Of a stretch of DNA of 64,000 bases, positions 6,696 to 35,827 are shown in pieces. The notes beneath the pieces are model-generated. The model was given only the letters and a program-made list of their open reading frames with translations, did no database searches and was not told the origin of the DNA. Both the position numbers and the translations under genes were made by a program. This DNA comes from Clostridiaceae bacterium (GTDB lineage Bacteria > Bacillota > Clostridia > Saccharofermentanales > DTU023), in assembly GCA_012841145.1 (NCBI GenBank), contig DUVH01000009.1, forward strand, positions 25,296 through 89,295. The letters are read 5' to 3'. Each line of letters starts with the position of its first letter. The stretch's first letter is position 1.

Positions 6696-8104
6696 TTGAC
6701 ATAAATTGCTACAATAGACAACGTGTCTACCGGAATCGCGACACGTATCATGTCATGTCCGAGGCTGCCGAACATGTCCTGTATCACGCCCCGTCAATTT
6801 TGAGCTTATTGGAGGACGGCATCGCAGTCTCGTTGGATATCACGCTTGTCGGGCCGAGAGTTATGCGTCGCATCAATCGCGAGCAGCGCGGTATCGATGC
6901 CGAAACGGATGTTCTTTCCTTTCCGAGTCACGAGATGCGCCGGGGCGAGTTTCTGAAGCCTATTGAGGATTGGGAGTTTATTGATGTCGACGGGACTGGC
7001 CGTCCGACACTCGATTTGGGTGAGATGGTTATCGCGCCGATCCGTGTTGACTCGCAAGCGCAGGAGCTGGGACATTCATTCGAGAGAGAGCTTCGCTTCC
7101 TCGTCATTCATGGTGTTTTACATCTTCTCGGTTTCGACCATGAAGATGAGGATGACGAGGCTGAGATGATACGTCGCCAGAAGGAGCTTCTAAGAGATCT
7201 GGAAGAAATTCCGTGCGGTTTCGTCGCTTTGGCGGGACGGCCGAATGTCGGAAAATCGACACTTCTTAACGAAATTGCCGGGCGCACATTGGCGATCGCG
7301 ACGGCCAAGCCGCAGACGACGCGTCATTCTATACGAGGTGTCTATACTGCGGACGACTGTCAGATCGCCTTTATCGACACACCGGGGATTCATCGGCCTA
7401 CAACGGGTCTCGGGAGAGCGATGATGCGCTCTGCCGTTAATTCCATTCATCAGGCTGACGTCGTCGTTCTGATGATCGACGCCGCCTGGCGTCCCGTGAT
7501 CGGTACGGCTGAGCGGCAGGTGATTGAGCAGGCCCGGAAGGACGGAAAACCTATTATCCTTGTTCTCAATAAAGTCGATGCGACGAGGAAAGAAAATGTT
7601 TTGCCGCTCATACAGGCGTACGATAAAGCGTATCAGCTTGATGCGTATGTTCCTTTGTCGGCTAAATTCGGTGACGGGACAGACCGACTTATTGACGAGA
7701 TCAGGCGATTGCTGCCGGTTCAGAGGCGGCTATTTTCTGCAGATGATGAAACGGATCAGACGGAGCGAGTTCTCGTCGGTGAGCTCGTCAGGCGTGAGGT
7801 ACTTTTACAGACCGAACAGGAAATTCCGTATGGAGTGACCGTCATTGTCGAATCATTTGATGAGGATGAAGGCGATCTCGGTCGCTTTGTCGCTATAGAC
7901 GCCGTTATCTTATGTAATAAAGACTCGCACAAGCAGATTCTCATCGGTAAGGGAGGTTCAAAGATCAAGTCGATCGGCATCGCCGCAAGGTCGGCCATCG
8001 AATCGCTTCTGGAGGCGCGTGTTGACCTTTCACTGTTCGTAAAAGTAAGACGAGACTGGCAAAATCGCGCCTATTATCTGCGTGAATCGGGGATACAGGA
8101 TTGA
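6692..8104 (+). CDS. Fusion protein: YbeY endoribonuclease (N-terminal) + Era GTPase (C-terminal)
   Basis: A single uninterrupted 470-aa ORF. It has the YbeY zinc motif HGVLHLLGFDHE at aa ~150, followed directly by Era G1 GRPNVGKSTLLN, G3 DTPG, G4 NKVD and a KH-like C-terminus. Confidence 0.9.
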   Translation: MIDINCYNRQRVYRNRDTYHVMSEAAEHVLYHAPSILSLLEDGIAVSLDITLVGPRVMRRINREQRGIDAETDVLSFPSHEMRRGEFLKPIEDWEFIDVDGTGRPTLDLGEMVIAPIRVDSQAQELGHSFERELRFLVIHGVLHLLGFDHEDEDDEAEMIRRQKELLRDLEEIPCGFVALAGRPNVGKSTLLNEIAGRTLAIATAKPQTTRHSIRGVYTADDCQIAFIDTPGIHRPTTGLGRAMMRSAVNSIHQADVVVLMIDAAWRPVIGTAERQVIEQARKDGKPIILVLNKVDATRKENVLPLIQAYDKAYQLDAYVPLSAKFGDGTDRLIDEIRRLLPVQRRLFSADDETDQTERVLVGELVRREVLLQTEQEIPYGVTVIVESFDEDEGDLGRFVAIDAVILCNKDSHKQILIGKGGSKIKSIGIAARSAIESLLEARVDLSLFVKVRRDWQNRAYYLRESGIQD

Positions 8105-10587: not shown

Positions 10588-13152
10588 TCAATCGAAATTT
10601 TTCCAAAATTCGCGGACGAGGCCAAGTGTCTCGTCTTTGTCCTTTGTGTGGATTGTGCGCCATTCTTCAGGAAGAAGCGCACGGTAATCGGGGCGGCTGT
10701 AACGATCGTCAACGAGCAGTACGAGTCCGAAGTCGTCCTCATTCCTGATAAGGCGCCCAACCGCTTGGGTGACGCGATTGAAACCGGGCCACATAAAAGC
10801 GTATTCATAACCTTTGCTCGTCTTTTGATCATAGTATTGGCGCAGAATCTCGCGTTCAGGCGATACCCCCGGCAATCCCGTTCCGATGATGATGACACCC
10901 GTCAGTTCTTCGCCGATCAGATCAATTCCCTCATTGAAAAGAGATCCGATCACGGTCATGCCGACGAGCGATCGTTTGCCTTTAGGCATTCTAAAGCGGT
11001 TCAAGTACGCATTTTTCTGCTTTTCCGTCATTCGGGTCGGTTGAACGAGAAATTCATTCGCCGAATTCTTGTGACGTTTTATCTCGTTCACCAACATTCT
11101 CTGATAAGCGAAAGAAGGGGAGAATACGAGGTAATGTCCTTTCCTTTCTCCAATAACATCGAGGATCAGCGACGTAATGACGGGAAGCGTAAGATGGCGA
11201 TCTTTATAACGGATCGAATACGCGTCGACATTCAGGACAAAGCGCCTTGAAGAATCGAACGGCGAATCAAGCATCAGAATTTCAGGTTTGTCAACTGAAC
11301 TGTCGGCATCGAGAAGTGAGACGTAATACGACGGCGGCGTCATCGTCGCGGAGAAGAAGACAACCGGTGATTTGTCGCGGTAGATATCGGTCAGATGGTT
11401 CGATGCGTCAAGCGCGAGGAGAGACGCGACGACTTCACCTTTATCGTAAAGGCGCCACGTATTGATGTATGTGCTGTCATAATAGTGTTCGATGACTTTT
11501 TGAAAAAAAAGAAGATCAAAGTAAGGGAGCATAAGCTTCTCGCGACCGTCGAATTGAAGCTCCTTATAAAAGAATCCCGAGAGTGCTGTTGTGAGTGACT
11601 CGACATCTTGTATAAAAAAAGGCGGAATCTCGCGCATCGCTAAAAATCGCTCACTGAACATCGGCTTAAATGGACTGAGCTCTTTTATATGCTCAGCGCC
11701 TTTAGAGCCACGTGCCGTATCCGTAAGAATGTCTGCGAATTGATCGATGCGACGCAAGAGTCGCTCGATAGCGACGATACATTTTTTCGCCTCACTGCGT
11801 AACGCGGTGTTTGTAGCGGTGTTTTCCGGAATGACGACATCACGCTCGATATTGCCTGTCGAAGCGAGATTCTTAAACATTTCGACTAAATTAAGGAGAG
11901 TTGTTCTTGAAAGTGTCGCCGAAAACATCTCGTTTGAACGGCGCGCGAGATTGTGCGCCTCGTCGACGAGCAGTGTGTATTTCAATTTCGTGTCGTCCAG
12001 ATGATTGGACCAGCGCACACGCGGGTTGAAGACGTAATTGTAGTCACAGATGACGACATCGCATCCGGCTCCGATTTCAAGCGACAATTCGAATGGACAG
12101 ACTTCGTATTTTTTTGCCAGCTCTATGATATCTTCAGGTAAAATACGCTGCAATTTAAAACTTTCGCGCAACGCATTGTGACGCTTTTCGTAATAATTGA
12201 CGGCGTAGGGGCATTTTCTCATATTGCAGAACAGATCTCCGGCTAAGCAGAGTTGCTCTTTCGCCCTGAATGTAATCGAGCGCACAAGAAAACCTGCAGA
12301 AGTGAGGTCATCTAAGGCTTGCTCAGCAATTTTCCGTTGCGATCTCGTCGGCGTCAGGTAGAATATCTGGTCGGTCAAACCGCCGGCCTGAGCTTTGATC
12401 GCGGGGTAGAGTGTCGCTACCGTCTTCCCGATACCTGTCGGCGCGACAATAAAAAGCTTGGCTGTATCGCGAATGGCGGCGATCACTTCGCGCATCATCT
12501 GTTTCTGGCCTTCGCGCAGTGTTTCGTACGGAAATCCGGCATTTTTATTGAGCGTGTTTCGAAGCATTTTATGCTCAAAGAGCGGCATTGCCACCTCAAG
12601 ATATCGCCTGCACGTCTGATCGAAATGAATGGACAGTTCGTCGGATGTCATCCGGCGCGTCAGGACAAACGACTCGTCCACATCGAACGACGTATAGTGG
12701 AGTTCGATTGTTACGTCTGAAGCATCAATCATCAAACCGTCTCTAAAACCGCTTTCGAGAAGTAAATGCGCGTAAAGATACGCCTGTGTCCAGTGGGCGG
12801 CATCGCCCTCGGAAGGGAGAGAATGCGCGCTTCCTCTAAATCCTTTAACTTCAATGAGTGTCAGTTCGCCTTTCGGAGAGAGAACGATCAGGTCACATCG
12901 TCCTTGCACGATCAAATCAACAGGAAGATCGTCCGCCGCAAAAACTCCGGAGAGCGATTCTTCGGCAAAAAGATCGCATCCAGGGAATCGTCTGTGCGCC
13001 GTTTTCAAAAACAGCTGGTGTATTCTCGTACCCTCAATTCCGGAGAGTCCGCCCTGCATGGCGGAGCCGAGTCCGCCGACGCGTCGCGTCGATTCGGCGA
13101 GTTTGCGGACGGCAACGGTCATCTCGTGTTTCATGTTCTCGATCTTGTTCAC
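10588..13152 (-). CDS. XPD/DinG-family (Rad3-like) Fe-S helicase with an N-terminal PD-(D/E)XK (Cas4/RecB-like) nuclease domain
   Basis: Helicase motif I APTGIGKT, DEAH box (VDEAHNL), and four Cys (CLAGDLFCNMRKC...VCPFE) where XPD/DinG bind 4Fe-4S. The N-terminal ~140 aa has GRCDLIV / LIEVKG / TQAYLY, i.e. a D...ExK...QxxxY nuclease signature. The GTG start forms a GTGA overlap with the licC-like stop. Confidence 0.8.
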   Translation of the reverse strand: MNKIENMKHEMTVAVRKLAESTRRVGGLGSAMQGGLSGIEGTRIHQLFLKTAHRRFPGCDLFAEESLSGVFAADDLPVDLIVQGRCDLIVLSPKGELTLIEVKGFRGSAHSLPSEGDAAHWTQAYLYAHLLLESGFRDGLMIDASDVTIELHYTSFDVDESFVLTRRMTSDELSIHFDQTCRRYLEVAMPLFEHKMLRNTLNKNAGFPYETLREGQKQMMREVIAAIRDTAKLFIVAPTGIGKTVATLYPAIKAQAGGLTDQIFYLTPTRSQRKIAEQALDDLTSAGFLVRSITFRAKEQLCLAGDLFCNMRKCPYAVNYYEKRHNALRESFKLQRILPEDIIELAKKYEVCPFELSLEIGAGCDVVICDYNYVFNPRVRWSNHLDDTKLKYTLLVDEAHNLARRSNEMFSATLSRTTLLNLVEMFKNLASTGNIERDVVIPENTATNTALRSEAKKCIVAIERLLRRIDQFADILTDTARGSKGAEHIKELSPFKPMFSERFLAMREIPPFFIQDVESLTTALSGFFYKELQFDGREKLMLPYFDLLFFQKVIEHYYDSTYINTWRLYDKGEVVASLLALDASNHLTDIYRDKSPVVFFSATMTPPSYYVSLLDADSSVDKPEILMLDSPFDSSRRFVLNVDAYSIRYKDRHLTLPVITSLILDVIGERKGHYLVFSPSFAYQRMLVNEIKRHKNSANEFLVQPTRMTEKQKNAYLNRFRMPKGKRSLVGMTVIGSLFNEGIDLIGEELTGVIIIGTGLPGVSPEREILRQYYDQKTSKGYEYAFMWPGFNRVTQAVGRLIRNEDDFGLVLLVDDRYSRPDYRALLPEEWRTIHTKDKDETLGLVREFWKNFD

Positions 13153-14033
13153 GATGTGAGTACCTCATCGAGGCGCTTAATGGACGAATCTGCATAACGA
13201 AAAGCATATCGACAGCCGTCCGCGATAAATTGAAAACCTTGGACATGACTGTCACCGTTTTTGATCGGTATTATCTGTCGGATATCGCGTTCTTGACACT
13301 TGAGCGATGCCGCCAAATATTTCAGAATAGTCGACCGCGAATTGTCAAGGTACGTCGGGTCAAAAGCTCTCAAATCATCTAATGTATCGAATTCGAAGAT
13401 ATTACCTCTCGGATATCTACGTGCCTTCATTCTCAAGACATCAAGATGATCAAGGAAAATATCCTCCCAAAACATATCGTACGTATCATCCCTCGCGTGC
13501 GCATCGAGGAGATATTGTACGAAATGTTGAGAAAATGTTTCATCAAAATACGCGTGTCCGAGCATTACCCAGGCATCGCGTCCGCCGATCGTCACGCCGG
13601 TGATGACTCCCTCATCGTCCGTGCTGACACACCATTCATCCGTCTCGCCCTCAGCGTAGACGACAGAGTAATAGGAGCCCGACACGTCTCTTTCGAATGG
13701 GTTGACCGTGAAGTAATTGTCAGCGGAGCAGATATACGTATCCGAGAGATAGTCACGAGCCGCATAGAGACTTCCGTGGTTATTACGCGTGTCGTACGTC
13801 TCATTAAAGATCAGCTTGACGTGATATTTATCCGCAAGGTAAGTGAACATATCTGACTTATATCCGGTAACGATGACAATTGAAGGAACGCCGGACTCCA
13901 TAAGCTGTTCGATCTGCCGTTCGATCAGAATCTCTCCTCTCACTTCGAACAGAGCCTTCGGTTTCTCGTAAGATAGCGGCGCGAAACGCGAGGAGAGGCC
14001 CGCCGCCATAATGACGGCATGTTTAACATTCAT
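13149..14033 (-). CDS. licC: LicC-like CTP:phosphocholine cytidylyltransferase (nucleotidyltransferase fold) with a ~55-aa C-terminal extension
   Basis: N-terminus AVIMAAGLSSRFAPLSYEKPKALFEV..ILIERQIE and the following ~230 aa track the pneumococcal LicC pattern as I remember it. It is paired with a choline-kinase-like gene. Confidence 0.75.
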   Translation of the reverse strand: MNVKHAVIMAAGLSSRFAPLSYEKPKALFEVRGEILIERQIEQLMESGVPSIVIVTGYKSDMFTYLADKYHVKLIFNETYDTRNNHGSLYAARDYLSDTYICSADNYFTVNPFERDVSGSYYSVVYAEGETDEWCVSTDDEGVITGVTIGGRDAWVMLGHAYFDETFSQHFVQYLLDAHARDDTYDMFWEDIFLDHLDVLRMKARRYPRGNIFEFDTLDDLRAFDPTYLDNSRSTILKYLAASLKCQERDIRQIIPIKNGDSHVQGFQFIADGCRYAFRYADSSIKRLDEVLTS

Positions 14034-14166
14034 ACGAGCTTAACCCTTTCATTCTGTTCGGCTATTATTACCGCCATATTGTCATTCGTATCATGACATG
14101 CGATTCGTAAAATGATGACTACATTATAGCCCGATATGAGATGTGACGACGTAAAGACAGATTTGA

Positions 14167-14196
14167 TTGACGATTTCGTCAGTTTTGTGTTAAATA
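14167..14196 (+). promoter_or_regulatory. Candidate sigma-A promoter for the licA-like operon
   Basis: TTGACG (14167-14172), 18-nt spacer, extended -10 TGtTAAATA (14188-14196). Confidence 0.4.
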
Positions 14197-14296
14197 GTTA
14201 GCATAAATAAGTTATTTTTGTGTTAAATGATTGACAAGAGAGCGTACAGGAAGGGGACTGCGCTCTGCTTTGTCGAAGAGAGGAGGAATTTGCGTC

Positions 14297-15181
14297 TTGG
14301 GTCCGAAGTATATTCAACAAAAGTATATGCCTGTGATATGTGAAGCATTGTCAGATGACCCCGAGATCACTTCATTTGTCCCGATGAAGCTCGGTATGAC
14401 GAATGATTCTTTTATCTTCGAGTGTCGTAGCGGGACGTTTATGCTCCGGCTCCCCGGGCGCGGGAGTGAGGCGCTGATCGACAGGAAACAGGAGTACGAA
14501 GTTTATCGGCTATTAGCCGGTCGCGGAATCTCCGATGAGGTTCTTTACTTTGACCCGAAGACGGGAATTAAGATTTCCCGCTATATTGAAGATGCACGCG
14601 TCTGTGACCCGCGATCTAAGTCAGACCTGAAGAGGTGTATGGATGTTTTGAGAAGTTTTCATGATTTGAATCTTTCCGTCGGTCACTTGTTTGATCCGTG
14701 GGAACGACTCGAATACTATGAATCGCTTCGCGGTGATACGCCGTCGAGATACGGCGATTACGCACTGACTAAAGCGACAATCCGGGACATTTATGAATGG
14801 ACATTGGAACAGCCTCGCCATATTATTCTCGCTCATATCGATCCCGTAGCCGACAACTTTGTCTTTACTCCTGACGGAAAAGTCTATCTGATCGATTGGG
14901 AATATGCCGCCATGCAGGACAAGGACATCGATGTCGCGATGTTCGCCGTTTACTCTCTGCTTGATAAGGAGCATGTCGATTGTCTGATCAATTTCTACCA
15001 GAACGGGGCTGAGGACAGGCTTCAGAAGAAAAAAATCTACGCATACATTGCCATTGCCGGTTTGGTATGGAGTAACTGGGCTGAATTCAAGATGAACAAC
15101 GGCGATGTGCTGGGCGAATACGCACCCGGTCAATATCGTTTCGCTAAAGATTATTCTGCGTATTTTTACGCGTTCAGTTAG
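14297..15181 (+). CDS. licA: Choline/ethanolamine kinase (LicA-like, APH fold)
   Basis: Brenner-type catalytic motif ILAHIDPVADNF and YLIDWEYAAMQD. N-terminal lobe LGMTNDSFIF...MLRLPG. The start is uncertain: I prefer TTG 14297 (AGGAGG at 14281-14286) to the tracked TTG 14231. Confidence 0.75.
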   Translation: MGPKYIQQKYMPVICEALSDDPEITSFVPMKLGMTNDSFIFECRSGTFMLRLPGRGSEALIDRKQEYEVYRLLAGRGISDEVLYFDPKTGIKISRYIEDARVCDPRSKSDLKRCMDVLRSFHDLNLSVGHLFDPWERLEYYESLRGDTPSRYGDYALTKATIRDIYEWTLEQPRHIILAHIDPVADNFVFTPDGKVYLIDWEYAAMQDKDIDVAMFAVYSLLDKEHVDCLINFYQNGAEDRLQKKKIYAYIAIAGLVWSNWAEFKMNNGDVLGEYAPGQYRFAKDYSAYFYAFS

Positions 15182-15208
15182 TGTACGGCGTATGAGTTTA
15201 GGCGGTCG

Positions 15209-17470
15209 GTGTCGTCAATGATGCACCTCATCAATACAATCTTCGGTATCCCTCTCGGTTACCTTATGTATGCCTGCTATCGATTGACAGGTAATTACGG
15301 ACTTTCCATCATCCTTTTCACGTTTATAACGAAAGTAATTATGTTCCCGCTTTCGCTCATCTCACAGAAGAATTCAATCGTCATGGTACGAATACGCCCG
15401 CAGCTCGAGGAAATCAGACAGCGTTACGCCGGCAACAGTACAGAGATGGCATCTAAGCAAAAGGAACTCTACCGTCGCGAGAAGTACAGCGCCTGGAAGG
15501 GGATGCTGCCGCTTCTTGTACAGATCCCGATCATTCTCGGTCTGATTAATGTCATCTACAACCCGCTCCAACACCTGTTGCGCCTTGAACCTTCCGTGAT
15601 CAATTCGCTGCTTGAGAGGACGGCGACATTTTCCGGAACGACGGTTGCCGGACTTGGAACGAGCGCGGAGCTGACCGTTCTCGAAACGGTACAAGAGAAT
15701 ATCGCCTTCTTTGGCGGATTACCCGGTGTAAACGAGATCGCTTCAATGAATCTCAAATTTCTCGGTCTAAACCTTGCGGAAGTACCGACGATCAACTCGC
15801 TCAGCATTCTATACCCTGTTTTCTCCGGATTGAGCGCTTTCGTCTTGGCGATGTACCAGAATAAGCATAACGTGCTCCAGCGAGCGCAAGGAGTCGTCAG
15901 TCGCAGGGTTATGACGGTCATTCTCGTCGCATTTTCAGCCTTTTTTGCCGCTATCTTGCCGTGCGGCGTCGGCTTGTACTGGATCGCGGGAAATCTCCTG
16001 TCGATACCTGTTCTCCTTCTTTGCAATATCATTTATGATCCCGGTGAATACGCCGAGGAGATTGAACATCTGGTAGCGCCGAAACTCAGCAAGGAAGAGA
16101 AACTTGAGCAAAGGGCGCTTAATAAAGAGAAACGCAGGAGACAGCGAGCCGATGTTAAACGTTTTAACTCGACAAAGGATAAACGTCTCGTTTTCTATTC
16201 GGAGAGCGACGGATTCTATAAGTATTTTGAAGGGTACATCAACTACATTCTCGAGCATTCCGATGTCGTCATCCACTATGTCACGAGCGATGTGCGAGAC
16301 CGCGTGCTCTCGATGAACAAAGCACGCATTCAGGCGTATTATGTCGGGCCGATTGCCTTGATCCGCGTGATGATGTTGATGGATGCTGATATCGTTGTCA
16401 TGACGATGCCCGACCTTGAGAAATACCACATCAAGCGTTCGCTCGTAAGGAAAGATATTGAATATATCTATACCGATCACGGAATGACGAGCCTCCACCT
16501 GATGCTTCAGGAGAACGCGCTCGACTATTTCGATACGATTTTCTGCTACGGCCCGAACCACATCCGGGAAGTGCGCGAGATGGAGCGCGTCTATAACCTT
16601 CCTGCTAAGACGCTTGTCAAAACGGGATTTCCCTTGCTAGATTCGATGATTGAAGGCGCAGAGGCGATCGGTGACGTAATCAACGACCCGAAAATCATCC
16701 TGATCGCACCATCTTGGCAACAGGACAACATTCTCGAGTACTGCTTGGAGGAGACGTTGCGCCCGCTTTTAGGAGCCGGCTATCGCATCGTTGTTCGGCC
16801 CCACCCGGAATTCATCAAGCGATTCCCGGGTAAAATGAGAAAGATCATCGAGCGTTATAAAGATGATGTGGGAGACGATTTTGAAATTCAGACTTCGTTC
16901 GCTTCAAGCGAAACGGTCTATTCTGCCGACCTCGTGATCACCGACTGGTCGTCTATCGCGAATGAATTCTCGTATGCGAGGAAGAAGCCATCTCTTTTTA
17001 TCAATACGCCGATGAAGGTCGTCAATCCGAATTACAAGAAAATTCCTCTTGTCCCGCTTGATATTTCATTGCGTGATGAGATCGGTATCTCAATCGATGT
17101 CGAAGACCTTGATACAATCCTCGACGTCGTTCATACGCTTTTTGATAATGCCGATGAATACAGAGGGCGTATTGCCGACGTCGTCAGTCAAAATATATTT
17201 GATGTTGGCGACGGTGCGCGCGGCGGAGGTCAATACATCATCGATGCCCTTAAGAGGCGTATGGATGAGACTGTCGAACCGTCCTGCGATGACCTCGTAA
17301 CGCGTTGGCGGAGTATACTAAATAGCGGTATCGACGATGAGATAAAACAGATGCTCAACGAACCGCTCCCGGTCGATAATTCCGGTAATAGAACGAAAGC
17401 GGACTTTTTGCAGGAGATTTTGGAAGAGCTCGAAAGTACGATGGAACAGGAGATGAAAGATGAATCGTAA
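15209..17470 (+). CDS. Fusion protein: YidC/Oxa1-type membrane insertase domain + CDP-glycerol glycerophosphotransferase (TagB/TagF-like) domain
   Basis: aa 1-~280 match the YidC core pattern (GLSIILFTFITKVIMFPLSL...QLEEIRQRY...LPLLVQIPIILGL). aa ~330-753 carry TagF-family motifs (IAPSWQQD, VRPHPEF, LVITDWSSIANEF). It is one ORF with no stop. The start may be ATG 15218. Confidence 0.8.
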   Translation: MSSMMHLINTIFGIPLGYLMYACYRLTGNYGLSIILFTFITKVIMFPLSLISQKNSIVMVRIRPQLEEIRQRYAGNSTEMASKQKELYRREKYSAWKGMLPLLVQIPIILGLINVIYNPLQHLLRLEPSVINSLLERTATFSGTTVAGLGTSAELTVLETVQENIAFFGGLPGVNEIASMNLKFLGLNLAEVPTINSLSILYPVFSGLSAFVLAMYQNKHNVLQRAQGVVSRRVMTVILVAFSAFFAAILPCGVGLYWIAGNLLSIPVLLLCNIIYDPGEYAEEIEHLVAPKLSKEEKLEQRALNKEKRRRQRADVKRFNSTKDKRLVFYSESDGFYKYFEGYINYILEHSDVVIHYVTSDVRDRVLSMNKARIQAYYVGPIALIRVMMLMDADIVVMTMPDLEKYHIKRSLVRKDIEYIYTDHGMTSLHLMLQENALDYFDTIFCYGPNHIREVREMERVYNLPAKTLVKTGFPLLDSMIEGAEAIGDVINDPKIILIAPSWQQDNILEYCLEETLRPLLGAGYRIVVRPHPEFIKRFPGKMRKIIERYKDDVGDDFEIQTSFASSETVYSADLVITDWSSIANEFSYARKKPSLFINTPMKVVNPNYKKIPLVPLDISLRDEIGISIDVEDLDTILDVVHTLFDNADEYRGRIADVVSQNIFDVGDGARGGGQYIIDALKRRMDETVEPSCDDLVTRWRSILNSGIDDEIKQMLNEPLPVDNSGNRTKADFLQEILEELESTMEQEMKDES

Positions 17471-19424
17471 GGTAAAGACAATTCTCTTTACGTTCCTGTT
17501 GGCAGGCCTCAGCTTTTCCGTTCCGGTTCATGCCTACATTGACCCCGCGACTACAACGTATATCATCCAAATTGTTACGGCTCTCGTCATTACCTTGGGC
17601 GTCACGATCGGCGTGTTCTTTACACGTGTCAGACTTTCGATTGTCGGACTTTATGTCCGTATTTCGGAGTTTTTTATCAGGCTTTTCTCCAAGAAGAAAG
17701 GCAATAGTGTCACGACATCGCGTACGCACCTCAGGATGTCGCCTCCGGCAGGGGATAAACAGTCGTTCCGCAGCCGACTTTTGAGCTCGGTTTGCGTCAG
17801 CGTCGCCTTTGCTTTCACATTTATCGTGTTCGGCATATACGAACTCTATATGCTGAATGTCGACTATTTCAATTTCCCGCTCAAGTTGCTGCTTCCGCCC
17901 CTTTTGCTCTTCGGTGCGCTCGTCGCCGTTATTTTGTGCGGCTTCCTCATCTTGTTTCGAGGAGCACTATTCAGCACGCTCATCTCTTTTGTTTTCGGAA
18001 TCGTGTTGGCGGGGTACGTGCAGGGCAATTTTCTCAACAGGGATCTCGGAACATTGACTGGCGACCCGATCGACTGGAGTGCGAAAACCGGCGCCTTTTT
18101 CGTCAATACGCTCGTGTGGATCGCCTTATTGGCGATTCCATTTTTGTTGAAAGCTGCCGGAAAGAAGATCCATACCGTAACGATCAGGGCGGTATCGACA
18201 CTTTTGGTGATAGTACAGCTCGTATCGATGATTGCGCTTCAATTCTCGCCGACGTCTACACCTCAGCGATCTAACAGGTATCTGTCAACAAAGGCAATCA
18301 ACGAAGTAGCTCAAGAGGATAACATCATCGTGATCGTTCTGGATCGCCTCGACAACCGCTACATCGATCGTGTGAGAAATGACGATCCGCGATTTTTTGA
18401 TCGGCTTGACGGTTTCACGCAGTTTACGAACAATATTTCACTTTATTCACAGACATTCCCTTCTGTCGCCAATATGTTTACAGGAGAACTTCACATGTTC
18501 GAGCGTCCGATGAATGATTATCTGAAGGACGCCTGGTCGACATCGACGTTCCTTCCCGGACTTCGTAAACAACAATATGATATTTACCTCTATATGGAAC
18601 CGGGGTATACGTATAGGGACGTGGCGGACTTAGAACATGTGGCCGACAATATCATTGAGAACGAGATACGCATTCATTCCAAAGAAGCCTTAGTGCAATT
18701 CGGACGCTTATCGGCTTTCCGGTACGCTCCGCTATTAGCCAAACCTTTTTTCTGGACATCGACTGATCAGTTCAGCCGACTGATTTCGACGGATTCGACA
18801 GAAGGATATCCGCCGTATTTTGCAGACGATATTCAGTTTTACCGGCAGCTAAAAAGCGAAAAACTTCATGTGAGTGAGCATGGCAAGAGGTTGACCTATA
18901 TCCACATGCAGGGTCCGCATATGCCTTACGTGATGAATGAAAAGGCCGAACCCGCTGAACCCGGTACTTCAAGCGCGATGGTTCAGACGAAAGGGAGTTT
19001 CCATATCGTCTTCGAATACCTCGATCAGCTGAAACAATTAGGACTCTACGAGAGCAGTACAATCATCATCACGGGTGACCATGGCGCGCGAAAGAATGAC
19101 AGATTGCCTCTCGACGAACCAATCGTCACTGCTCTGTTCATCAAACCCGCAGGGAAAGGGGGTACTCCCTTAGCGTTTAATGGTGCACCTGTCTCAGCGG
19201 ATCAATTCCGACCATTTATATACAGCGAAGCCGGCATTCCGCATGAGGGACTCGGGAAGACGTATTTCGAAGTTCCTGAGGATTCAAGCGATGTTAGATA
19301 TCTTTACCATCGCCTTATAAAAACTGACGAGTCTCCAGCAAGGCTCCTTATATACAAAATCCGCGGAGATGCCAACGATTTTAAGAACTGGGTGCTTGTT
19401 GAGGATCGGGTGGACAACAACTAA
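17460..19424 (+). CDS. Polytopic membrane protein with extracellular sulfatase/alkaline-phosphatase-fold domain (LtaS / phosphoglycerol-transferase-like)
   Basis: About 6 TM segments, then IIVIVLDRLDNRY (metal/nucleophile region) and IIITGDHGAR motifs typical of the LtaS/sulfatase superfamily. 11-nt overlap with the upstream gene. Confidence 0.7.
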   Translation: MNRKVKTILFTFLLAGLSFSVPVHAYIDPATTTYIIQIVTALVITLGVTIGVFFTRVRLSIVGLYVRISEFFIRLFSKKKGNSVTTSRTHLRMSPPAGDKQSFRSRLLSSVCVSVAFAFTFIVFGIYELYMLNVDYFNFPLKLLLPPLLLFGALVAVILCGFLILFRGALFSTLISFVFGIVLAGYVQGNFLNRDLGTLTGDPIDWSAKTGAFFVNTLVWIALLAIPFLLKAAGKKIHTVTIRAVSTLLVIVQLVSMIALQFSPTSTPQRSNRYLSTKAINEVAQEDNIIVIVLDRLDNRYIDRVRNDDPRFFDRLDGFTQFTNNISLYSQTFPSVANMFTGELHMFERPMNDYLKDAWSTSTFLPGLRKQQYDIYLYMEPGYTYRDVADLEHVADNIIENEIRIHSKEALVQFGRLSAFRYAPLLAKPFFWTSTDQFSRLISTDSTEGYPPYFADDIQFYRQLKSEKLHVSEHGKRLTYIHMQGPHMPYVMNEKAEPAEPGTSSAMVQTKGSFHIVFEYLDQLKQLGLYESSTIIITGDHGARKNDRLPLDEPIVTALFIKPAGKGGTPLAFNGAPVSADQFRPFIYSEAGIPHEGLGKTYFEVPEDSSDVRYLYHRLIKTDESPARLLIYKIRGDANDFKNWVLVEDRVDNN

Positions 19425-19840
19425 CGTAACGATAATGTAACGAGTGAAAGTCTGAAAAATAATAGGTTCTCTTTGAACATATAATCATTTTCTGGTAAGA
19501 TTTAATAAATATAATTATATTTCAAGTGTCAACGATAGGTAGGAAAGTAGCGAGCCCCGTCGTCGATACTTCCGCAATTTTTGTGTGTTGACGTGAGCAG
19601 TAGTTCCGAGATTATTGGGGAGGGTGTGCATGAGGACATATCTTAAAAAAAATGCAGTGTTGTTGGTCGCATTCATCGCGTTATCGCTGACCTTCGCATC
19701 GCCAATTCTGGCAGCTGAAGGAGATGTAGAGATTAACGAGACAAATTTCCCTGATGATGCCTTCAGAGAATTTGTAACTCAGTACGATACGAGTGGAGAC
19801 GGCACTTTGCAAGTCACTGAGCTCGAAGCCGTGACGGAGA
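19413..19840 (+). repeat. Duplicated segment, copy A (217-nt leader + first ~210 nt of LRR gene 1)
   Basis: Aligns by eye with 22014..22440. The leaders have equal length (217 nt), roughly two-thirds identity, and a perfectly shared 14-mer CCGTCGTCGATACT (19557-19570 / 22159-22172). The 5' coding part is ~90% identical. Confidence 0.75.
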
Positions 19841-21898: not shown

Positions 21899-22013
21899 CA
21901 TGTTGAAAGCCATGAAAACAGCCAGCATCAAAACGTAGCGGGTTCATGTAGGCGATAGCGGCCGAACTTTTCTGCTACTTGTATTCTCTTCAAATATTTG
22001 CCATTGCAACAAT

Positions 22014-22440
22014 GACGACAACTGACGTAACAATAATGTAACGACGGAAAGCCTTAAAAACAACAAGGATTCTTTGAATAAATAATCTGTGTCTGGTACC
22101 ATGTATCAAATGTATAAAGATTTCAATCGTCAATAATAGATATGAGAATGGCGAGATACCGTCGTCGATACTGCCAGTATTAGCAAACGGTGACATGAGC
22201 ATTAGTTTCGATGTAACAAGGAGGATTTGCATGAGGACAAATCTTAGTAAGATTGTTGTGTTGGTAGTAGCCTTCGCGTTATTGCTGACCTTCGCACCGC
22301 CAATTCTGGCAACTGAAGGAGATGTGGAGATTAACGAGACAAATTTCCCTGATGATGCCTTCAGGGAATTTGTAACTCAGTACTACGATACGAACGGAGA
22401 CGGTACTTTGCAAGTCGCTGAGCTCGAAGCCGTGACGGAA
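22014..22440 (+). repeat. Duplicated segment, copy B (217-nt leader + first ~210 nt of LRR gene 2)
   Basis: See copy A (19413..19840). Confidence 0.75.
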
Positions 22441-24318
22441 ATTGTGTTAGACGATGATTATGTGACTAACATAATAGGGATCAAGTACTTTACGAATTTG
22501 GCTAGTCTCACTTGTTTTTGTCGCGAATTAGAGGATCTGGATGTGACAGGCTGTGCGAATCTTGAGTCTTTGCTGATTGCCGATGCAGATTACATAGAGT
22601 CTCTCGATGTATCAAATTGTACGAACTTGCGCAAATTGATGTGTTTCATGTGTCTTGAACTGAATTCATTGAACGTATCGGGCTGTACAAAACTCGAGTC
22701 GCTTATTTGTGCCCATACCAGCGTAGAGGAACTTGATGTATCAAGTTTGACTAACTTGAAAAAGCTCATTTGCTCCTATAGCCCTGTTCGTTCACTTGAT
22801 TTATCTGCATGTCAAAAATTAGTCACCCTCAATGTTTATCGCGCCAGTCTTGACAATCTGGACTTGTCTGAACAAAAAGAGCTACAAAAACTTGATACTA
22901 GTATGAATTGTTTGGCAGTGTTGGATGTTTCCGGACTTCCTCTTCTTTGGCAGTTTACTGCCGGAGAACAGTACGGCGAGGAAGTTATTGCTGTCAGAAG
23001 AGGTGATCAGTATGTTGCTGATCTCAGCTCTTTGGAAGGCGTCGATATTGCAAGAATTAAGGATATAGAAGTCAGTTTCTATGATGAAGGACTTCTTCCG
23101 ACCGGTTATACGTATAACAAGACCACCGGTTTGTTGACGATAGATGTTGATCCGGGTCAATCGGAATTCGTCTATGTTTACGATACTAAAGCTAATCTCA
23201 AAAACTTAGATAAACCGCCTGCCGGATACGATCCTCCCGGATACGCCGAATACGATGAGGAAGAAGAATTCGATGAGGAAAAGGAAGAGGAAGAGGATTG
23301 GCGCTATCGCGATTCGTCTCCCGACTTGGAAGTAAGGTTTACTATCAACATCGTCGAGGAGTCTCTTGAAGCGCCCGTAGTTTTAGAGACGGAAGATGAC
23401 AACGTCGAGATTGGAGAAGACGGTGTCGTTATTTTTCAGCAACGAGAGCAGTCCGAGGATGAAACTGCTGAGGACGTGACAGAGGGCGGCATTTCATTAA
23501 AGATTGAGGGCAATGTAGACGATTTTCAGTATGTTACATTGAACGGACAACGAGTGGCACGCCAACATTACGACGTAAAGGAAGGCAGCATTATTGTCAC
23601 GCTCAAAGACGCTTTTCTGAGTAGCCTGCCGCCAGGAGAGTATGTAGTAAAGCTGTTTACGAAGGCGTTTGTCAACAGCCAAAATATCTTGCTTGTCGCG
23701 CCTGAGCCCGAACCTGCGCCGGATTCTGAAGTCGACAAGCAGTTACCTGATGTTACTGAGTCTGATTCAAAGCCGCTGATCATCGATATTCCTTCGGATT
23801 TGAATGAAGGCAATGACATCGTATTGGCTAACGATGGCGTTGTGGAATATTTCATCGGCAAATCGAACGGAATTACCTTTAAAGTATCGTTTGAGGGTTC
23901 CGATGCACTAAGTAAAAATGACTTCCGTTCTTTGACGGTAGATGGTGAAGAAATAGAACAAACACCTGATAATTACACTGTAGAAGACGGCAGCATCATA
24001 GTCAAACTGACTAAGAGATTTTTGGACAACCTTCCCAAGAAGGAACATTCCATCGGCATACACACAGAACAGGGATCTGTTGTTAAAATTATTAGGAGAA
24101 TAGAGGCTGATCCTGAAACGACGACATCTGATTCGCCCGATGAGGTCATAGTGACAATGCCGGACAAGATGGATCCGGAGTCTGCAGTGACGCCACCGGC
24201 GACGGGTGAGGTTAAGTATAACCACGTCTGGTGGGCAGCGCTGTTGTTGCTGTCTGTTGGCGCTGTGCTTCTCTTTACATCATCATCGATTCGACGCGAA
24301 GGTAAGCAGAGACGCTGA
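22231..24318 (+). CDS. Cell-wall-anchored LRR surface protein, paralog 2
   Basis: Same architecture as 19630..21816. Signal peptide (LTFAPPILA/TEG), LRRs, two beta-rich modules, sorting signal PPATGE + hydrophobic helix + RREGKQRR. ATG 22231 preferred (AGGAGG upstream). Confidence 0.85.
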   Translation: MRTNLSKIVVLVVAFALLLTFAPPILATEGDVEINETNFPDDAFREFVTQYYDTNGDGTLQVAELEAVTEIVLDDDYVTNIIGIKYFTNLASLTCFCRELEDLDVTGCANLESLLIADADYIESLDVSNCTNLRKLMCFMCLELNSLNVSGCTKLESLICAHTSVEELDVSSLTNLKKLICSYSPVRSLDLSACQKLVTLNVYRASLDNLDLSEQKELQKLDTSMNCLAVLDVSGLPLLWQFTAGEQYGEEVIAVRRGDQYVADLSSLEGVDIARIKDIEVSFYDEGLLPTGYTYNKTTGLLTIDVDPGQSEFVYVYDTKANLKNLDKPPAGYDPPGYAEYDEEEEFDEEKEEEEDWRYRDSSPDLEVRFTINIVEESLEAPVVLETEDDNVEIGEDGVVIFQQREQSEDETAEDVTEGGISLKIEGNVDDFQYVTLNGQRVARQHYDVKEGSIIVTLKDAFLSSLPPGEYVVKLFTKAFVNSQNILLVAPEPEPAPDSEVDKQLPDVTESDSKPLIIDIPSDLNEGNDIVLANDGVVEYFIGKSNGITFKVSFEGSDALSKNDFRSLTVDGEEIEQTPDNYTVEDGSIIVKLTKRFLDNLPKKEHSIGIHTEQGSVVKIIRRIEADPETTTSDSPDEVIVTMPDKMDPESAVTPPATGEVKYNHVWWAALLLLSVGAVLLFTSSSIRREGKQRR
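23310..23716 (+). repeat. Near-identical block shared with paralog (copy B)
   Basis: See 20811..21223. Confidence 0.85.
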
Positions 24319-24414
24319 GTCAGTTCGTTTCGTTGATTCAAAGGTTCGCTCATAAGCGGAGCAAAAACTGAGTCCAGTTATCCAGTGTTTCTACAGCAAA
24401 AATGATTGAAATAA

Positions 24415-24444
24415 CGTGGGCGCCTCATTGTTGAGACGCCCACG
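24415..24444. terminator. Bidirectional hairpin terminator between convergent LRR gene 2 and the peroxiredoxin gene
   Basis: 8-bp GC-rich stem CGTGGGCG / CGCCCACG (24415-24422 / 24437-24444) with T-rich sequence on both sides. Confidence 0.6.
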
Positions 24445-24474
24445 CTTCTTGTTAGGTAAAGGCTGTTTTATGCT

Positions 24475-25176
24475 TTACTCATCTTTCTTGAATGTCAAGT
24501 ACCAGTCGAGCTGTGTATACTCGTCCTTACCTTTGACTTCCTCGACACGCTCTTTGATAGCTTTCGTTGTGACCGGTGGCGGCACGATGACGTCTTTGCC
24601 TGGATGCCAGTTGGCGGGGAGAGCGACACCCTCGGCATCTGACTTCTGTAAGCCGATGACGATGCGTTTGATCTCATTGAAATTCCTGCCTAGAGATGAC
24701 GGATAGTAAAGGATTGTTCTCATGACACCTTCCGGATCGACGAAGAAGACTGCGCGCACGGCAGCCGTATCGGATTCACCCTGGAGCATACCGTATTTAT
24801 TGGCCACTTCCATCTTTACGTCGTCAATGACGGGGAACTTGACATCCGGGTTCTCGATGCCGTTCCACGAATAGTTCTTAATTGCCGTTACCCAGCCCAA
24901 GTGGGCGTGGACGGAGTCGATCGAGAGTCCGACGAGTTCCGTGTTGAGCGATTTGAACTCTTCGTGCATTGACGCGAAGGTCATAAACTCGGTCGTACAA
25001 ACGGGGGTAAAGTCCGCCGGGTGGGAGAAGAGGATAACCCACTTTCCTTTGTAGTCATCCGGGAAATTTATCACGCCGTGCGTCGTATTTGCGGTGAATT
25101 TCGGAGCGGGTAGTCCGATCAGCGGAAATGAATTCTTCGGTTCAACCTGAACATTTTTATCACAATTGTTTTCCAT
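24475..25176 (-). CDS. Peroxiredoxin, Prx6-like 1-Cys type (AhpC/TSA family)
   Basis: FSHPADFTPVCTTEF peroxidatic-Cys motif with the surrounding Prx6-type pattern. Start set at the second ATG (25176) because GGAGGG lies just upstream and overlaps the tracked first ATG. Confidence 0.85.
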   Translation of the reverse strand: MENNCDKNVQVEPKNSFPLIGLPAPKFTANTTHGVINFPDDYKGKWVILFSHPADFTPVCTTEFMTFASMHEEFKSLNTELVGLSIDSVHAHLGWVTAIKNYSWNGIENPDVKFPVIDDVKMEVANKYGMLQGESDTAAVRAVFFVDPEGVMRTILYYPSSLGRNFNEIKRIVIGLQKSDAEGVALPANWHPGKDVIVPPPVTTKAIKERVEEVKGKDEYTQLDWYLTFKKDE

Positions 25177-25321
25177 AATACCCTCCATAGAATAAAAGTT
25201 TTGGATAATTGAATTTGCTAAATTAGCTTACAAAGTAATTTTAGTATAGGCATCAATTTTTTGCTGTAAGACTGGTTACATCCGTATTTTGCGATATACC
25301 GAGCATGCCGGTGCATTAACA

Positions 25322-25344
25322 TTTGTATGCTCGGAGCATACAAA
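25322..25344. promoter_or_regulatory. Perfect 11-1-11 palindrome, candidate operator
   Basis: TTTGTATGCTC-g-GAGCATACAAA lies in the divergent intergenic region between the peroxiredoxin and kinase genes. Confidence 0.4.
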
Positions 25345-25415
25345 CGGATATCGGATTGCTTTAAAATAACAGGTAAGGAAAGATAATATCGTACTTTGAA
25401 AGGCGGTGATACCGT

Positions 25416-34103: not shown

Positions 34104-35827
34104 GACGACTTGAAATCATATCCTCTTTGTTTAAGCACCTTCATTCTTTTCGTTGGTACATGGTGCTTAATGTTGTGATTTGTTTTTTATATGAGCTTAT
34201 GCCCATGGCCTCTCTCTTTCTGGTTTCCTATGTCATAGGGGCTATTATTAGAGGAGTGTCCTTGAATTATCAAGGTTTTTTGTTTGTTTTGATTCTCCTT
34301 ACATTCCTACAGGCGTGCTTTGGCTATATAAATATGTGGACGGAACACGATATCGCCTATCGGATTTTGTATAAACTGCGTCAAGACATCTATGATCGAT
34401 TAGAAAAAGCTCTGCCTATCTTTGGTAAGGGGATGAGCTCTGCAGAGATTGTATCCATTGTGTCTAATGACATGAATATCTTAGAGTGGTTTTATGCTCA
34501 TACCATCAACATCTTTATCGTCACCGTGGTTATCGCTCTTTTGATTCTTTCCTTTTACTTTTATCTTCATCCGGTACTTGCCCTAAACGCTTTGCTATGG
34601 ATTGTGGGGTATCTCCTTAGTGCTGTGATTTTTAAAAAGAAATCTGAAGAAGATGGACGTGAATTGCGTAAAAATTATGGAATTCTTGCTCGCTTAGGAG
34701 TAGATTTAGTCCAAGGGCTTAAAGACTTACTGACCTTTCAAGCGTGGCACAGATACTTGCAAAGATTTGGTATTGCCGTAGATAACTATGATGAAGCCAA
34801 GAAAAAAGATGCTCTAAGAAGATCCCGAGAATATATGTATACTTTGTGTATCGTGGCACTGATGACTCTATGCACACTCCTCATATCCAATCATTTAACT
34901 ATAAGTAATGCGTTTAGTTTTGCGTGGCTGCCTACACTGATTAGTCTCAATGCTTGTATTGTGATGTTATTGAATAAATTTATGAGTATGTCATCTCAAT
35001 TCTCATCTATTTTTGCTGCAAGTGAACGGGTTCTCAATCTCCTTAATGTCCCTATATCTGTAGAAGATAAGGGTAGCTTGGTATTTGAAGGTTCTATTGA
35101 AACTGTTGTTTTTGAAGATGTCTCTTTTACTTATCCGGGCACATCTATCCCACAAATCAAAGGACTCAACTTTAGCTTAAGAAAGGGTGAGCAGGTTTCC
35201 CTGGTAGGAGAGTCCGGCTCAGGGAAAACAACAATTATAAGGCTTATACAACGTTATGCCGACCCTCAAAAAGGAAGAATTTTAGTAAATGGCAGAGATA
35301 TCAGAGAATATACGCTGGAGTCTTGGAGAAATGCGTTGTCTGTGGTCTCACAGCACACCTACTTGTTTAAAAGGAGCGTCGAGGACAACATCGAAATGGG
35401 ACGGCCGGGTGTATCAAAAGAGGAAATTCGGCAAGCTGCAAAGATTGCCCAAGCACACGAGTTTATTGAGGACTTTCCTGGGGGGTATGCCACTGAAGTT
35501 GGAGAACGGGCATTAAAGATTTCCGGCGGACAAAGGCAACGACTCTCCATTGCCCGCGCCATCTTAAAGGACAGTTCCTTTATTATCTTTGATGAAGCTC
35601 AGTCCTCTTTAGATTCTGCCAATGAAGAGCGCTTAATAATAGCGATGGATGATTTTTTGGAAAACAGGGTTTTCCTCTCAATCGCACACCGCTTATCTTC
35701 TATCCAAAATAGCCATCGTATCCTATTTATGGATGAGGGCTGTCTTGTTGCCAGTGGCACCTTTGAGGAATTGTCAGAACTGCATCCTCTATTTAAAGAA
35801 AAGATTTTGGGGGAAGGGCAAGGCTAG
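34100..35827 (+). CDS. ABC exporter, fused permease/ATPase subunit (CydC/MdlB-like partner)
   Basis: Six-TM domain, Walker A GESGSGKTT, signature ISGGQRQRLSIARA, Walker B IIFDEAQSSLD. 4-nt overlap with the upstream subunit. Confidence 0.85.
   Translation: MRRLEIISSLFKHLHSFRWYMVLNVVICFLYELMPMASLFLVSYVIGAIIRGVSLNYQGFLFVLILLTFLQACFGYINMWTEHDIAYRILYKLRQDIYDRLEKALPIFGKGMSSAEIVSIVSNDMNILEWFYAHTINIFIVTVVIALLILSFYFYLHPVLALNALLWIVGYLLSAVIFKKKSEEDGRELRKNYGILARLGVDLVQGLKDLLTFQAWHRYLQRFGIAVDNYDEAKKKDALRRSREYMYTLCIVALMTLCTLLISNHLTISNAFSFAWLPTLISLNACIVMLLNKFMSMSSQFSSIFAASERVLNLLNVPISVEDKGSLVFEGSIETVVFEDVSFTYPGTSIPQIKGLNFSLRKGEQVSLVGESGSGKTTIIRLIQRYADPQKGRILVNGRDIREYTLESWRNALSVVSQHTYLFKRSVEDNIEMGRPGVSKEEIRQAAKIAQAHEFIEDFPGGYATEVGERALKISGGQRQRLSIARAILKDSSFIIFDEAQSSLDSANEERLIIAMDDFLENRVFLSIAHRLSSIQNSHRILFMDEGCLVASGTFEELSELHPLFKEKILGEGQG

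Follow-up and report, generated by a model that had tools for sequence, protein, structure and literature searches.

A YidC/Oxa1 core fused to a TagF-like phosphotransferase domain: a conserved single polypeptide and candidate inner-face enzyme of a two-sided envelope-decoration pathway

Enzymes of the TagF family move a phospho-alcohol from a cytidine diphosphate (CDP)-alcohol to a hydroxyl, and TagF itself associates peripherally with the membrane. CDP-choline is the product of LicA and LicC. LtaS, GacH and enzymes of the EptA type draw a phospho-head group from a membrane lipid (phosphatidylglycerol, phosphatidylethanolamine) at the outer leaflet, and the canonical context of the insertase gene yidC is rnpA-yidC-jag. 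Relatives of these proteins are found together in a 64-kb stretch of contig DUVH01000009.1 (the window), whose open reading frames (ORFs) were listed with their translations. One ORF, 15209..17470 on the plus strand, encodes a YidC/Oxa1 core followed by a TagF-like domain and stands between a LicA-type kinase gene and an LtaS-like gene. An earlier reading of the sequence (the original prediction) had described it as a YidC insertase domain joined to a TagB/TagF-type CDP-glycerol glycerophosphotransferase, and the ORF listing confirms its coordinates and length exactly: 753 aa from a GTG codon, stop codon included in the interval. We propose that this fusion is the inner-face enzyme of a conserved two-sided pathway for decorating the cell envelope, a reading with about an even chance of being correct.

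The YidC-TagF-like fusion is a genuine single polypeptide, and a widely conserved one. A homologue search of 5.8 billion proteins, from which the best 120 matches were kept (52-100% identity, at least 86% coverage), finds both Pfam domains in all 120, from independent sources. A scan of one genome per species, with at least 580 of 600 pattern matches confirmed, supplied the best 80 loci, and in every one of these query residues from about 2 to about 680 or beyond are matched in one frame. The linker between the halves can be aligned across the whole family alignment with indels of only one or two residues, and a split form is rare (L165, described below). Because both halves are continuous across these proteins and loci, a sequencing frameshift or missed stop that merged adjacent yidC and tagF-like genes, the artefact against which the original prediction had cautioned, is excluded; no point in its support was found, and its chance of being right is negligible. 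The start codon probably lies not at GTG 15209 but at ATG 15218, giving 750 aa, since a 100% identical database protein (P0001) has 750 aa and the ORF opens with GTG-TCG-TCA-ATG-ATG preceded by an AGGCGG box. Amino acid positions are numbered here from the GTG.

A phyletic survey, one of the checks proposed with the original prediction, shows the fused form spread over Clostridia and Actinobacteria. Relatives among the best 120 proteins are named "membrane protein insertase YidC" and include proteins from metagenome-assembled genomes (MAGs) of Saccharofermentanales (96% identity), Clostridiaceae, Fastidiosipila, Peptococcaceae, Coriobacteriales, Propionibacteriaceae and Bifidobacteriaceae. Carriers among the best loci include a cultured isolate, Bittarella massiliensis (L023), as well as sporadic MAGs of Treponema, Flexilinea and Fibrobacter. 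Since many loci are MAG contigs, the unexpected ones among these taxa (Caulobacteraceae, Fibrobacter) could be the result of binning errors or of gene transfer.

By every criterion tested, from profile matches to a predicted structure, the N-terminal half is a complete YidC core of the YidC/Oxa1 family, with a putative insertase activity. The Pfam model PF02096 (60KD_IMP) matches aa 30-268 at 117.3 bits (cut-off 35), and the NCBIfam model TIGR03592 (yidC_oxa1_cterm) scores 115.7 bits (cut-off 84.3), while the fusion falls far under the cut-off of every species-level "equivalog" YidC model of NCBIfam. A profile of the fusion family finds E. coli YidC at an E-value of 1.7e-19. An AlphaFold2 model built on 27 family members (mean predicted local distance difference test score, pLDDT, 85.5) gives the chain order as an N-terminal helix, transmembrane (TM) helix TM1 running into a cytoplasmic hairpin, TM2, an extracytoplasmic helical insert of about 80 residues, TM3 to TM5, a long basic helix, two alpha/beta lobes and a helical C-terminal region. 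The predicted helices of the YidC half span aa 30-72, 77-91, 95-117, 198-220, 229-249 and 252-275, with the hairpin at aa 53-91 and the insert at aa 118-197. Searched against the Protein Data Bank (PDB) with Foldseek, the N-terminal half matches B. halodurans YidC (3WO7_A) with a TM-score of 0.70, and E. coli YidC (6AL2) is matched too. The complete-looking five-helix core of the original prediction is thus borne out, as are the motifs it quoted, all of which are present and fall in invariant or near-invariant columns of the family alignment. None of the scanned window ORFs (200 aa or longer, drawn from across the 64 kb) is a second yidC, and in 46 related loci none lies within 6 kb of the fusion either.

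The groove of this YidC core appears well preserved. In the profile alignment K42 (nt 15332-15334) stands opposite the arginine in "IVRGIMYPL" of E. coli YidC, the conserved groove arginine. The column is mostly K and sometimes R among the 27 family members, so that the positive charge contributed by R366 in E. coli and R72 in B. halodurans is kept through a conservative substitution. Seven polar residues within the helices are invariant in the family alignment (T38, T41, Q105, S206, S209, S243 and N262). Mean pairwise identity is 0.68 for TM1, 0.77 for TM2, 0.58 for TM3, 0.59 for TM4 and 0.69 for TM5, against 0.66 for each catalytic lobe of the C-terminal half. These features bear on the explanation that the YidC fold was co-opted simply to place the enzyme at the membrane, perhaps docking a partner, with neither insertion nor lipid movement. 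TM1, TM2 and TM5 that are at least as well conserved as the catalytic lobes, many invariant polar residues in the helices together with K or R at the groove position, and a complete cytoplasmic hairpin would all be unusual for a mere anchor. Evidence of other kinds favours an anchor, and is taken up with the unfused relatives below.

The C-terminal half is, by hidden Markov model and by predicted fold, a divergent member of the PF04464 superfamily, and its enzymatic activity is predicted. PF04464 (Glyphos_transf) matches aa 317-598 at 48.8 bits (cut-off 22.1) over profile positions 6-292 of 367, so that both Pfam models that the original prediction had suggested checking score above their cut-offs. 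TagF (3L7L) is the top Foldseek match overall (3L7L_D, E-value 2.4e-8, TM-score 0.56 on the target), and the next matches for this half are the TagF-like capsule polymerases Cps3D (8QOY) and Bcs3 (8A0C). A phmmer search with the C-terminal domain did not retrieve TagF from the PDB sequences, nor did the family profile, so it is Pfam and fold comparison that carry the assignment of this half. When the C-terminal domain by itself was searched exhaustively with HMMER against 1.84 billion cluster representatives, just 1,938 matches reached E-values of 1e-3 or better (the best 150 of these were classified), and the TagF-like domain can therefore be regarded as a small, distinct subfamily. Its invariant motifs in the family alignment are D423-H424 (H424 at nt 16478-16480), P501-S-W-Q504, R530-P-H532-P533 (H532 at nt 16802-16804), T578-D-W-S581, E586 and N599-T-P-M-K603. 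Of the domain's histidines just two are invariant, H424 (within "DHG") and H532 (within "RPHP"), and the H, RPH and DWS signature is likewise invariant in 46 unfused relatives. TagF of S. epidermidis reportedly has two catalytic histidines, H444 and H584; motifs of the TagF family are PTxR, KxHP and TDYSS.

Which donor this domain uses is best approached through the genes around it (Table 1). The LicC-type product has pneumococcal LicC as its best solved relative (1JYK, E-value 5e-41, query 6-226 against chain positions 28-248), with a phosphonate-type nucleotidyltransferase (6PD1) as the second solved match. For the kinase, the best solved relative is pneumococcal LicA (4R77, E-value 9.1e-33, near full length); in a related genome the orthologue is annotated with 294 aa, a length that would correspond to a start at TTG 14297. 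The original prediction had an overlapping-start operon, with a choline kinase upstream and an LtaS-like gene downstream by an 11-nt overlap. An operon with both genes is supported and the downstream overlap is correct (17460..17470), but the kinase gene ends at 15181 and leaves a gap of 27-36 nt before the fusion. The module further includes the LicC-type gene on the opposite strand, which that description leaves out. At its 3' end this gene overlaps the start of a DinG-like helicase gene (10588-13152, minus strand, 854 aa) by 4 nt (13149-13152), and it appears to be co-transcribed with this DNA helicase and not with the rest of the module. A promoter and terminator scan across 13900-19800 was uninformative.

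Table 1. Features of the fusion ORF and of the adjoining genes of its module (window coordinates; identity is mean pairwise identity within the family)
Feature	Coordinates	Strand	Details
LicC-type CTP:phospho-alcohol cytidylyltransferase	13149..14033	-	294 aa; PF12804, PF00483; divergent from kinase gene
LicA-type choline/ethanolamine kinase	14231..15181	+	316 aa from TTG; PF01633, PF01636
YidC/Oxa1 core of fusion	15296..16033	+	aa 30-275; PF02096, TIGR03592, AlphaFold2 model, Foldseek
Basic linker of fusion	16034..16186	+	aa 276-326; K/R-rich long helix aa 295-321, predicted cytoplasmic (AlphaFold2); identity 0.41
TagF-like phosphotransferase domain of fusion	16187..17098	+	aa 327-630; two Rossmann-like lobes; PF04464, Foldseek
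C-terminal helical region and variable acidic tail of fusion	17099..17467	+	aa 631-690 moderately conserved (AlphaFold2; identity 0.35); aa 691-753 (identity 0.14)
LtaS-like membrane phosphotransferase	17460..19424	+	654 aa; about 7 predicted TM helices, then extracytoplasmic sulfatase-fold domain; PF00884

Among the scanned ORFs of the window there is no LicD, LicB, TagD, choline-binding-repeat protein or second transferase, and the LicD domain PF04991 is absent from the fusion as well as from the others, which are housekeeping genes and the genes of a low-GC block. The TagF-like domain is consequently the only visible candidate user of the LicA/LicC product. Given these neighbours, the lack of LicD and TagD among the scanned ORFs, and relatives that lie in clusters with phosphoenolpyruvate (PEP) mutase, CDP-choline or an analogue is more likely to be its donor than CDP-glycerol. 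In relatives the kinase and LicC are often fused to one another, as a LicC-LicA protein of about 600 aa encoded beside the fusion, including in other phyla, and in one cluster (P0121) the kinase is fused to the C-terminus of the YidC-TagF-like protein itself. A Christensenellaceae locus (L065) has, directly after the fusion, the genes of a phosphonate pathway, namely those for a thiamine pyrophosphate-dependent decarboxylase, a transferase of LicC/PntC type, a cytidylyltransferase-PEP mutase and an Fe-alcohol dehydrogenase, and other fused loci have transferase-aminotransferase fusions as neighbours. The fusion would thus be the constant element beside variable modules that make cytidine-activated small head groups.

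These contexts weigh against a classical teichoic-acid enzyme, one that would use CDP-glycerol to prime or polymerise poly(glycerol phosphate) and would have its lic-type neighbours by coincidence. Such an enzyme would fit the PF04464 score, the appearance of TagF and TagF-like capsule polymerases as top structural matches, and an LtaS-like neighbour suggestive of glycerol-phosphate chemistry. It is nonetheless very unlikely: neither TagD nor any other CDP-glycerol-forming gene is among the scanned window ORFs, LicA/LicC or PEP-mutase modules recur beside the gene across phyla, no TagGH-type ATP-binding cassette (ABC) exporter is conserved beside it, and the subfamily is small and divergent enough for TagF to be missed by sequence and profile searches of the PDB. 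Of the name CDP-glycerol glycerophosphotransferase in the original prediction, then, the fold family stands, while the reaction is probably a different one.

The gene immediately downstream of the fusion encodes the second enzyme of the proposed pathway. PF00884 matches it at 29.7 bits (cut-off 25), and TM prediction gives a two-helix hairpin with an "AYIDPATT" loop, then five helices, before the external domain. In an alignment of 26 orthologues the active-site columns D295, H487, D540 and H541 are invariant and T332 is nearly so; T332 is, from its position, the putative nucleophile. The best solved match of its family profile is S. aureus eLtaS (2W5Q, E-value 1.7e-8), aligned across the GDH metal motif. 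An EptA/MCR-1-like identity, suggested by a nucleophile motif, is not retained, as the profile search favours LtaS. The use of an outer-leaflet phospholipid donor is assumed for this partner by homology. As a separate observation, the "AYIDPATT" hairpin loop (window 17460-17640, a short outside loop) is kept across the 26-member alignment.

Pairing of the two genes is a general property of the family. Counts were made in the 46 fused loci that have 2.5 kb or more of sequence on either side. In 34 of them (74%) a membrane gene of sulfatase fold is found no more than 6 kb from the fusion, as a rule immediately next to it; a LicC-type nucleotidyltransferase is that close in 28, a kinase in 15 and PEP mutase in six (L065 and five more). 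Gene calling in the loci was crude (longest ORF, greedy), so the co-occurrence figures here and below are approximate and probably undercounts; partner matches found by tblastn in L024, L031 and L046, for example, were missed by ORF calling. Single genomes may carry two or three YidC-TagF-like paralogues, each with its own LtaS-like neighbour (L037, L039 and L040 in one Coriobacteriales MAG; L053 and L054 in one Oscillospiraceae MAG), which suggests parallel systems for different head groups or acceptors.

Natural triple fusions take the association further. Almost all relatives above about 40% identity among the best 150 of the 1,938 cluster representatives are YidC-fused, and the same 150 include eight clusters with the order YidC-TagF-LtaS and eight with LtaS-YidC-TagF. 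Both orders are topologically coherent because the LtaS-like module has an odd number of TM helices before its external domain: either the external LtaS domain runs into an N-out YidC, or the cytoplasmic TagF-like domain runs into an N-in TM bundle. The modelled topology, in which YidC is N-out/C-in, the TagF-like domain is cytoplasmic and the partner domain is external, thereby gains independent support. Triple fusions also support a physical complex of the YidC-TagF-like and LtaS-like proteins.

A physical association of this kind would also fit a dedicated insertase or chaperone, in which the YidC half inserts, folds or assembles the multi-span LtaS-like partner or other proteins of the pathway and the fusion would make sure that enzyme and partner are assembled together. 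All hallmarks of the YidC family are present, the partner has about seven TM helices and a large exported domain, and the 11-nt overlap couples translation of the two. The triple fusions cut both ways here. The partner is made before the YidC part in LtaS-YidC-TagF chains, and in YidC-TagF-LtaS a large folded cytoplasmic domain intervenes between YidC and LtaS, so insertion in cis would be awkward in either. Moreover a bulky enzyme replaces the C-terminal tail, which is the ribosome contact in YidC2/Oxa1, and the unfused systems described next work without a dedicated YidC. We consider an insertase role, with the coupling to insertion of partner proteins that the original prediction had also offered, improbable, though the present data do not tell it from lipid handling.

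Once identity falls under about 38%, the relatives are soluble, have no YidC and measure about 385 aa. A metagenome search, using a pattern drawn from a 10-sequence subset, confirmed at least 510 such loci, of which 80 were fetched and 40 had enough flank for counting. A membrane sulfatase-fold gene lies within 6 kb of the unfused gene in 27 of the 40 (68%), directly adjacent in 15, and PEP mutase is nearby in 16; 34 of the 40 have one or the other. No kinase was found near any of the 40, and YidC near a single one. Because this clade keeps the pair and has YidC in only one of 40 loci, the inside TagF-like and outside sulfatase-fold enzymes would be the ancient core of the system, with YidC an addition typical of the clade in Clostridia and Actinobacteria. 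Two loci have the YidC separately encoded. In L091, from a deltaproteobacterial MAG, the genes for the unfused enzyme, PEP mutase and Fe-alcohol dehydrogenase precede a full-length YidC gene of its own, which starts 2 nt further on and has a sulfatase-fold gene convergent on it. In L165, the split form, the gene immediately upstream of the enzyme encodes a YidC of 253 aa, and two LtaS-like genes are close by.

Such relatives speak for YidC as an anchor or scaffold. Soluble relatives manage a sulfatase-fold partnership without any YidC, TagF itself is peripheral at the membrane, and among close relatives P0130 replaces YidC with a partner-type "AYIDPxTT" hairpin, P0143 has two TM helices and P0136 retains YidC TM1 only. 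A separately encoded YidC in an equivalent operon (L091, L165), on the other hand, can be no covalent anchor. The suggestion in the original prediction that the fold serves only to hold the enzyme at the membrane is accordingly favoured by the relatives with simple anchors or none, and weakened by the helix conservation, the invariant polar groove residues and the unfused YidC of those operons; we give it rather less than one chance in three.

The unfused genes deserve notice in their own right. They are frequent in metagenomes of sediment and marine origin (at least 510 loci; e.g. L091 7893-14695, L087 1206-9934 and L093-L172), where they sit beside five-helix sulfatase-fold genes inside clusters of PEP mutase, decarboxylase and Fe-alcohol dehydrogenase. 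Two studies of phosphonate genomics (PMC6697681, Rice et al. 2019; PMC8942020, Li and Horsman 2022) assign the downstream step to LicD-like transferases or glycosyltransferases, mention sulfatases in passing, and do not mention TagF-like or YidC proteins. The soluble TagF-like relatives are candidate enzymes for the transferase step by which phosphonates are added to the cell surface. Proteins of this soluble type, about 380 aa long and with no membrane domain (P0183, P0279), bear the Joint Genome Institute name "YidC/Oxa1 family membrane protein insertase", an annotation that evidently spread from the fusion.

Taken together, these contexts point to the following pathway. LicA and LicC would make CDP-choline or a close CDP-amino-alcohol, and the TagF-like domain would move the phospho-head group (here most likely phosphocholine) from the nucleotide to the hydroxyl of a membrane lipid in the cytoplasmic leaflet. 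Diacylglycerol, a glycolipid or a polyprenol-linked precursor are candidate acceptors, and the product would be a lipid-linked donor. That donor would reach the outer leaflet, where the LtaS-like enzyme, by analogy to LtaS, GacH and EptA, would hand the head group to a surface polymer or lipid. If the two enzymes belong to one pathway, a membrane-embedded intermediate must cross the bilayer, since one of them needs a cytoplasmic nucleotide donor and the other works outside. The YidC core would hold the transferase in the membrane next to its LtaS-like partner; its hydrophilic groove is the most likely, though unproven, crossing route for the lipid-linked head group, a step that general scramblases would perform in the unfused systems. 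Handling of a lipid-linked polymer by this groove, which the original prediction had called speculative, may in this respect be the best fit to the conserved pairing of inside and outside enzymes.

There is experimental precedent for lipid movement by this family, in that purified E. coli YidC scrambles glycerophospholipids in proteoliposomes, and simulations of B. subtilis MisCB point the same way (PMC11047089). Whether the groove of the fusion carries a lipid head group across the bilayer is a tentative proposition, which we judge to have somewhat under one chance in three. The same tentative standing applies to its strongest form, in which the YidC core is a dedicated lipid head-group translocase with K42 in the middle of its groove, the fused domain makes a choline- or phosphonate-bearing lipid in the inner leaflet, and the docked LtaS-like enzyme outside moves the head group on to a surface polymer. 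An example of a product would be phosphatidylcholine, formed from CDP-choline and diacylglycerol by an enzyme unrelated to the known phosphatidylcholine synthases.

Several observations count against a two-sided pathway with the fusion at its inner face. The kinase accompanies only those 15 of the 46 fused loci, and in 15 of the 46 no donor gene can be recognised in the vicinity. Roughly one fused locus in four lacks an adjacent partner, the loci of Ruminococcus type among them; a divergent partnerless subgroup of this Ruminococcus/Oscillospiraceae type (L068-L070, L074, L079, L080 and L083) has a PGA_cap (CapA-like) gene upstream and a 296-aa helix-turn-helix and NTP-transferase protein downstream, a context that falls outside the proposed model. 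YidC would not be needed for the chemistry, as the unfused clade pairs with a sulfatase-fold enzyme almost always without it, and the few close relatives already named (P0130, P0136, P0143) swap the YidC core for an anchor of one or two TM helices. Both the acceptor lipid and the head group are read from neighbouring genes alone. The putative equivalence of H424 and H532 to the catalytic histidines of TagF comes from motif resemblance and fold. Finally, the TagF-like domain could, by analogy to LicD, act directly on a polyprenol-linked glycan, the LtaS-like step being unrelated.

If the translocase reading is true, the system would be new in kind: the first natural case of an Oxa1-family insertase fold that physiologically moves lipid, not protein, within a self-contained synthase-flippase-transferase machine. 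Lipid scrambling by YidC is so far known only in vitro and from simulations (PMC11047089), and a YidC permanently wired to both a lipid-modifying enzyme and an outward-facing lipid-consuming one would provide a natural test system for lipid movement by the insertase groove in cells, with relevance to an old problem, the passage of bacterial lipids and lipid-linked intermediates across the membrane. The family also points to an unrecognised route by which phosphocholine or phosphonate, surface groups that are immunologically active, could reach the envelopes of gut and sediment anaerobes (Clostridia, Coriobacteriia, Bifidobacteriaceae and others). Full-text literature searches found no paper describing the YidC-TagF-like fusion. 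The architecture is already in public databases under a misleading insertase name: hundreds of such genes are annotated simply "membrane protein insertase YidC", which hides the enzyme family.

Two further features lie elsewhere in the window. A block at 22000-36000 has a GC content of 0.40-0.43, against about 0.50 in the rest. Besides a second leucine-rich repeat (LRR) surface protein it encodes a Ser/Thr kinase that carries LRR repeats, at 25416-27164, a protein of 994 aa without a Pfam match at 27342-30326, a C11 peptidase of the clostripain family at 30330-32153, and two ABC exporters at 32361-35827. A related genome (L001/L002) has the gene order LRR protein, AhpC, Mur ligase, FeoB and lacks the kinase-to-ABC part, and this part of the low-GC block looks like an insertion. 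A single ORF of 470 aa at 6692-8104 combines a YbeY endoribonuclease with an Era-type GTPase and a KH domain, a fusion also present in the related genomes L001-L003.

Set beside the systems already described, the fusion shares features with several and differs from each. With the YidC/Oxa1/Alb3 insertases (3WO6/3WO7, 6AL2, SpoIIIJ/MisCB) it shares the five-helix core, the cytoplasmic hairpin and the groove charge in TM1; it differs in having an enzyme of about 430 aa in place of the C-terminal tail, mostly Lys instead of Arg at the groove position, no N-terminal lipoprotein signal or extra TM segment, and a place in an envelope-decoration operon, not in rnpA-yidC-jag. With TagF, TagB and TarF, and with Cps3D and Bcs3, it shares PF04464 and the two-lobe Rossmann-like fold; its two invariant histidines may correspond to the catalytic pair of TagF, and its PSWQ, RPHP and TDWSS motifs resemble the PTxR, KxHP and TDYSS of the TagF family. 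Unlike these enzymes, it has neighbours that would make CDP-choline-type or cytidine monophosphate (CMP)-phosphonate donors and not CDP-glycerol or CDP-ribitol, is integral to the membrane through YidC and not peripheral, and is paired with an outward-facing sulfatase-fold enzyme where they have an ABC exporter.

The pneumococcal LicA-LicC-LicD pathway likewise has a kinase and a cytidylyltransferase that feed a phosphotransferase at the cytoplasmic face. Lacking PF04991, however, the fusion would be an analogue of LicD at most, the transfer being performed by a non-homologous enzyme of TagF fold. To the Pnt tailoring clusters, defined by the PntC cytidylyltransferase-PEP mutase, the likeness is one of context, as TagF-like relatives both fused and unfused adjoin PEP mutase, phosphonopyruvate decarboxylase, Fe-alcohol dehydrogenase and LicC/PntC-type genes, whereas the window carries a kinase instead of PEP mutase. 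The partner, for its part, has the N-terminal TM bundle, the external sulfatase-fold domain and the conserved Asp, Thr and Asp-His of LtaS, GacH and EptA. Known members of that group use bulk phospholipids without a dedicated cytoplasmic donor-making enzyme, while the partner here is coupled, and sometimes fused, to a nucleotide-dependent transferase. By analogy only, the proposed sequence of steps recalls the three-component glycosylation systems GtrB/GtrA/GtrC and CsbB-GtcA-YfhO, which load a lipid carrier inside, flip it and transfer outside; no component is homologous, the cargo here would be a phospho- or phosphono-alcohol and not a sugar, and the proposed translocator has the YidC fold.

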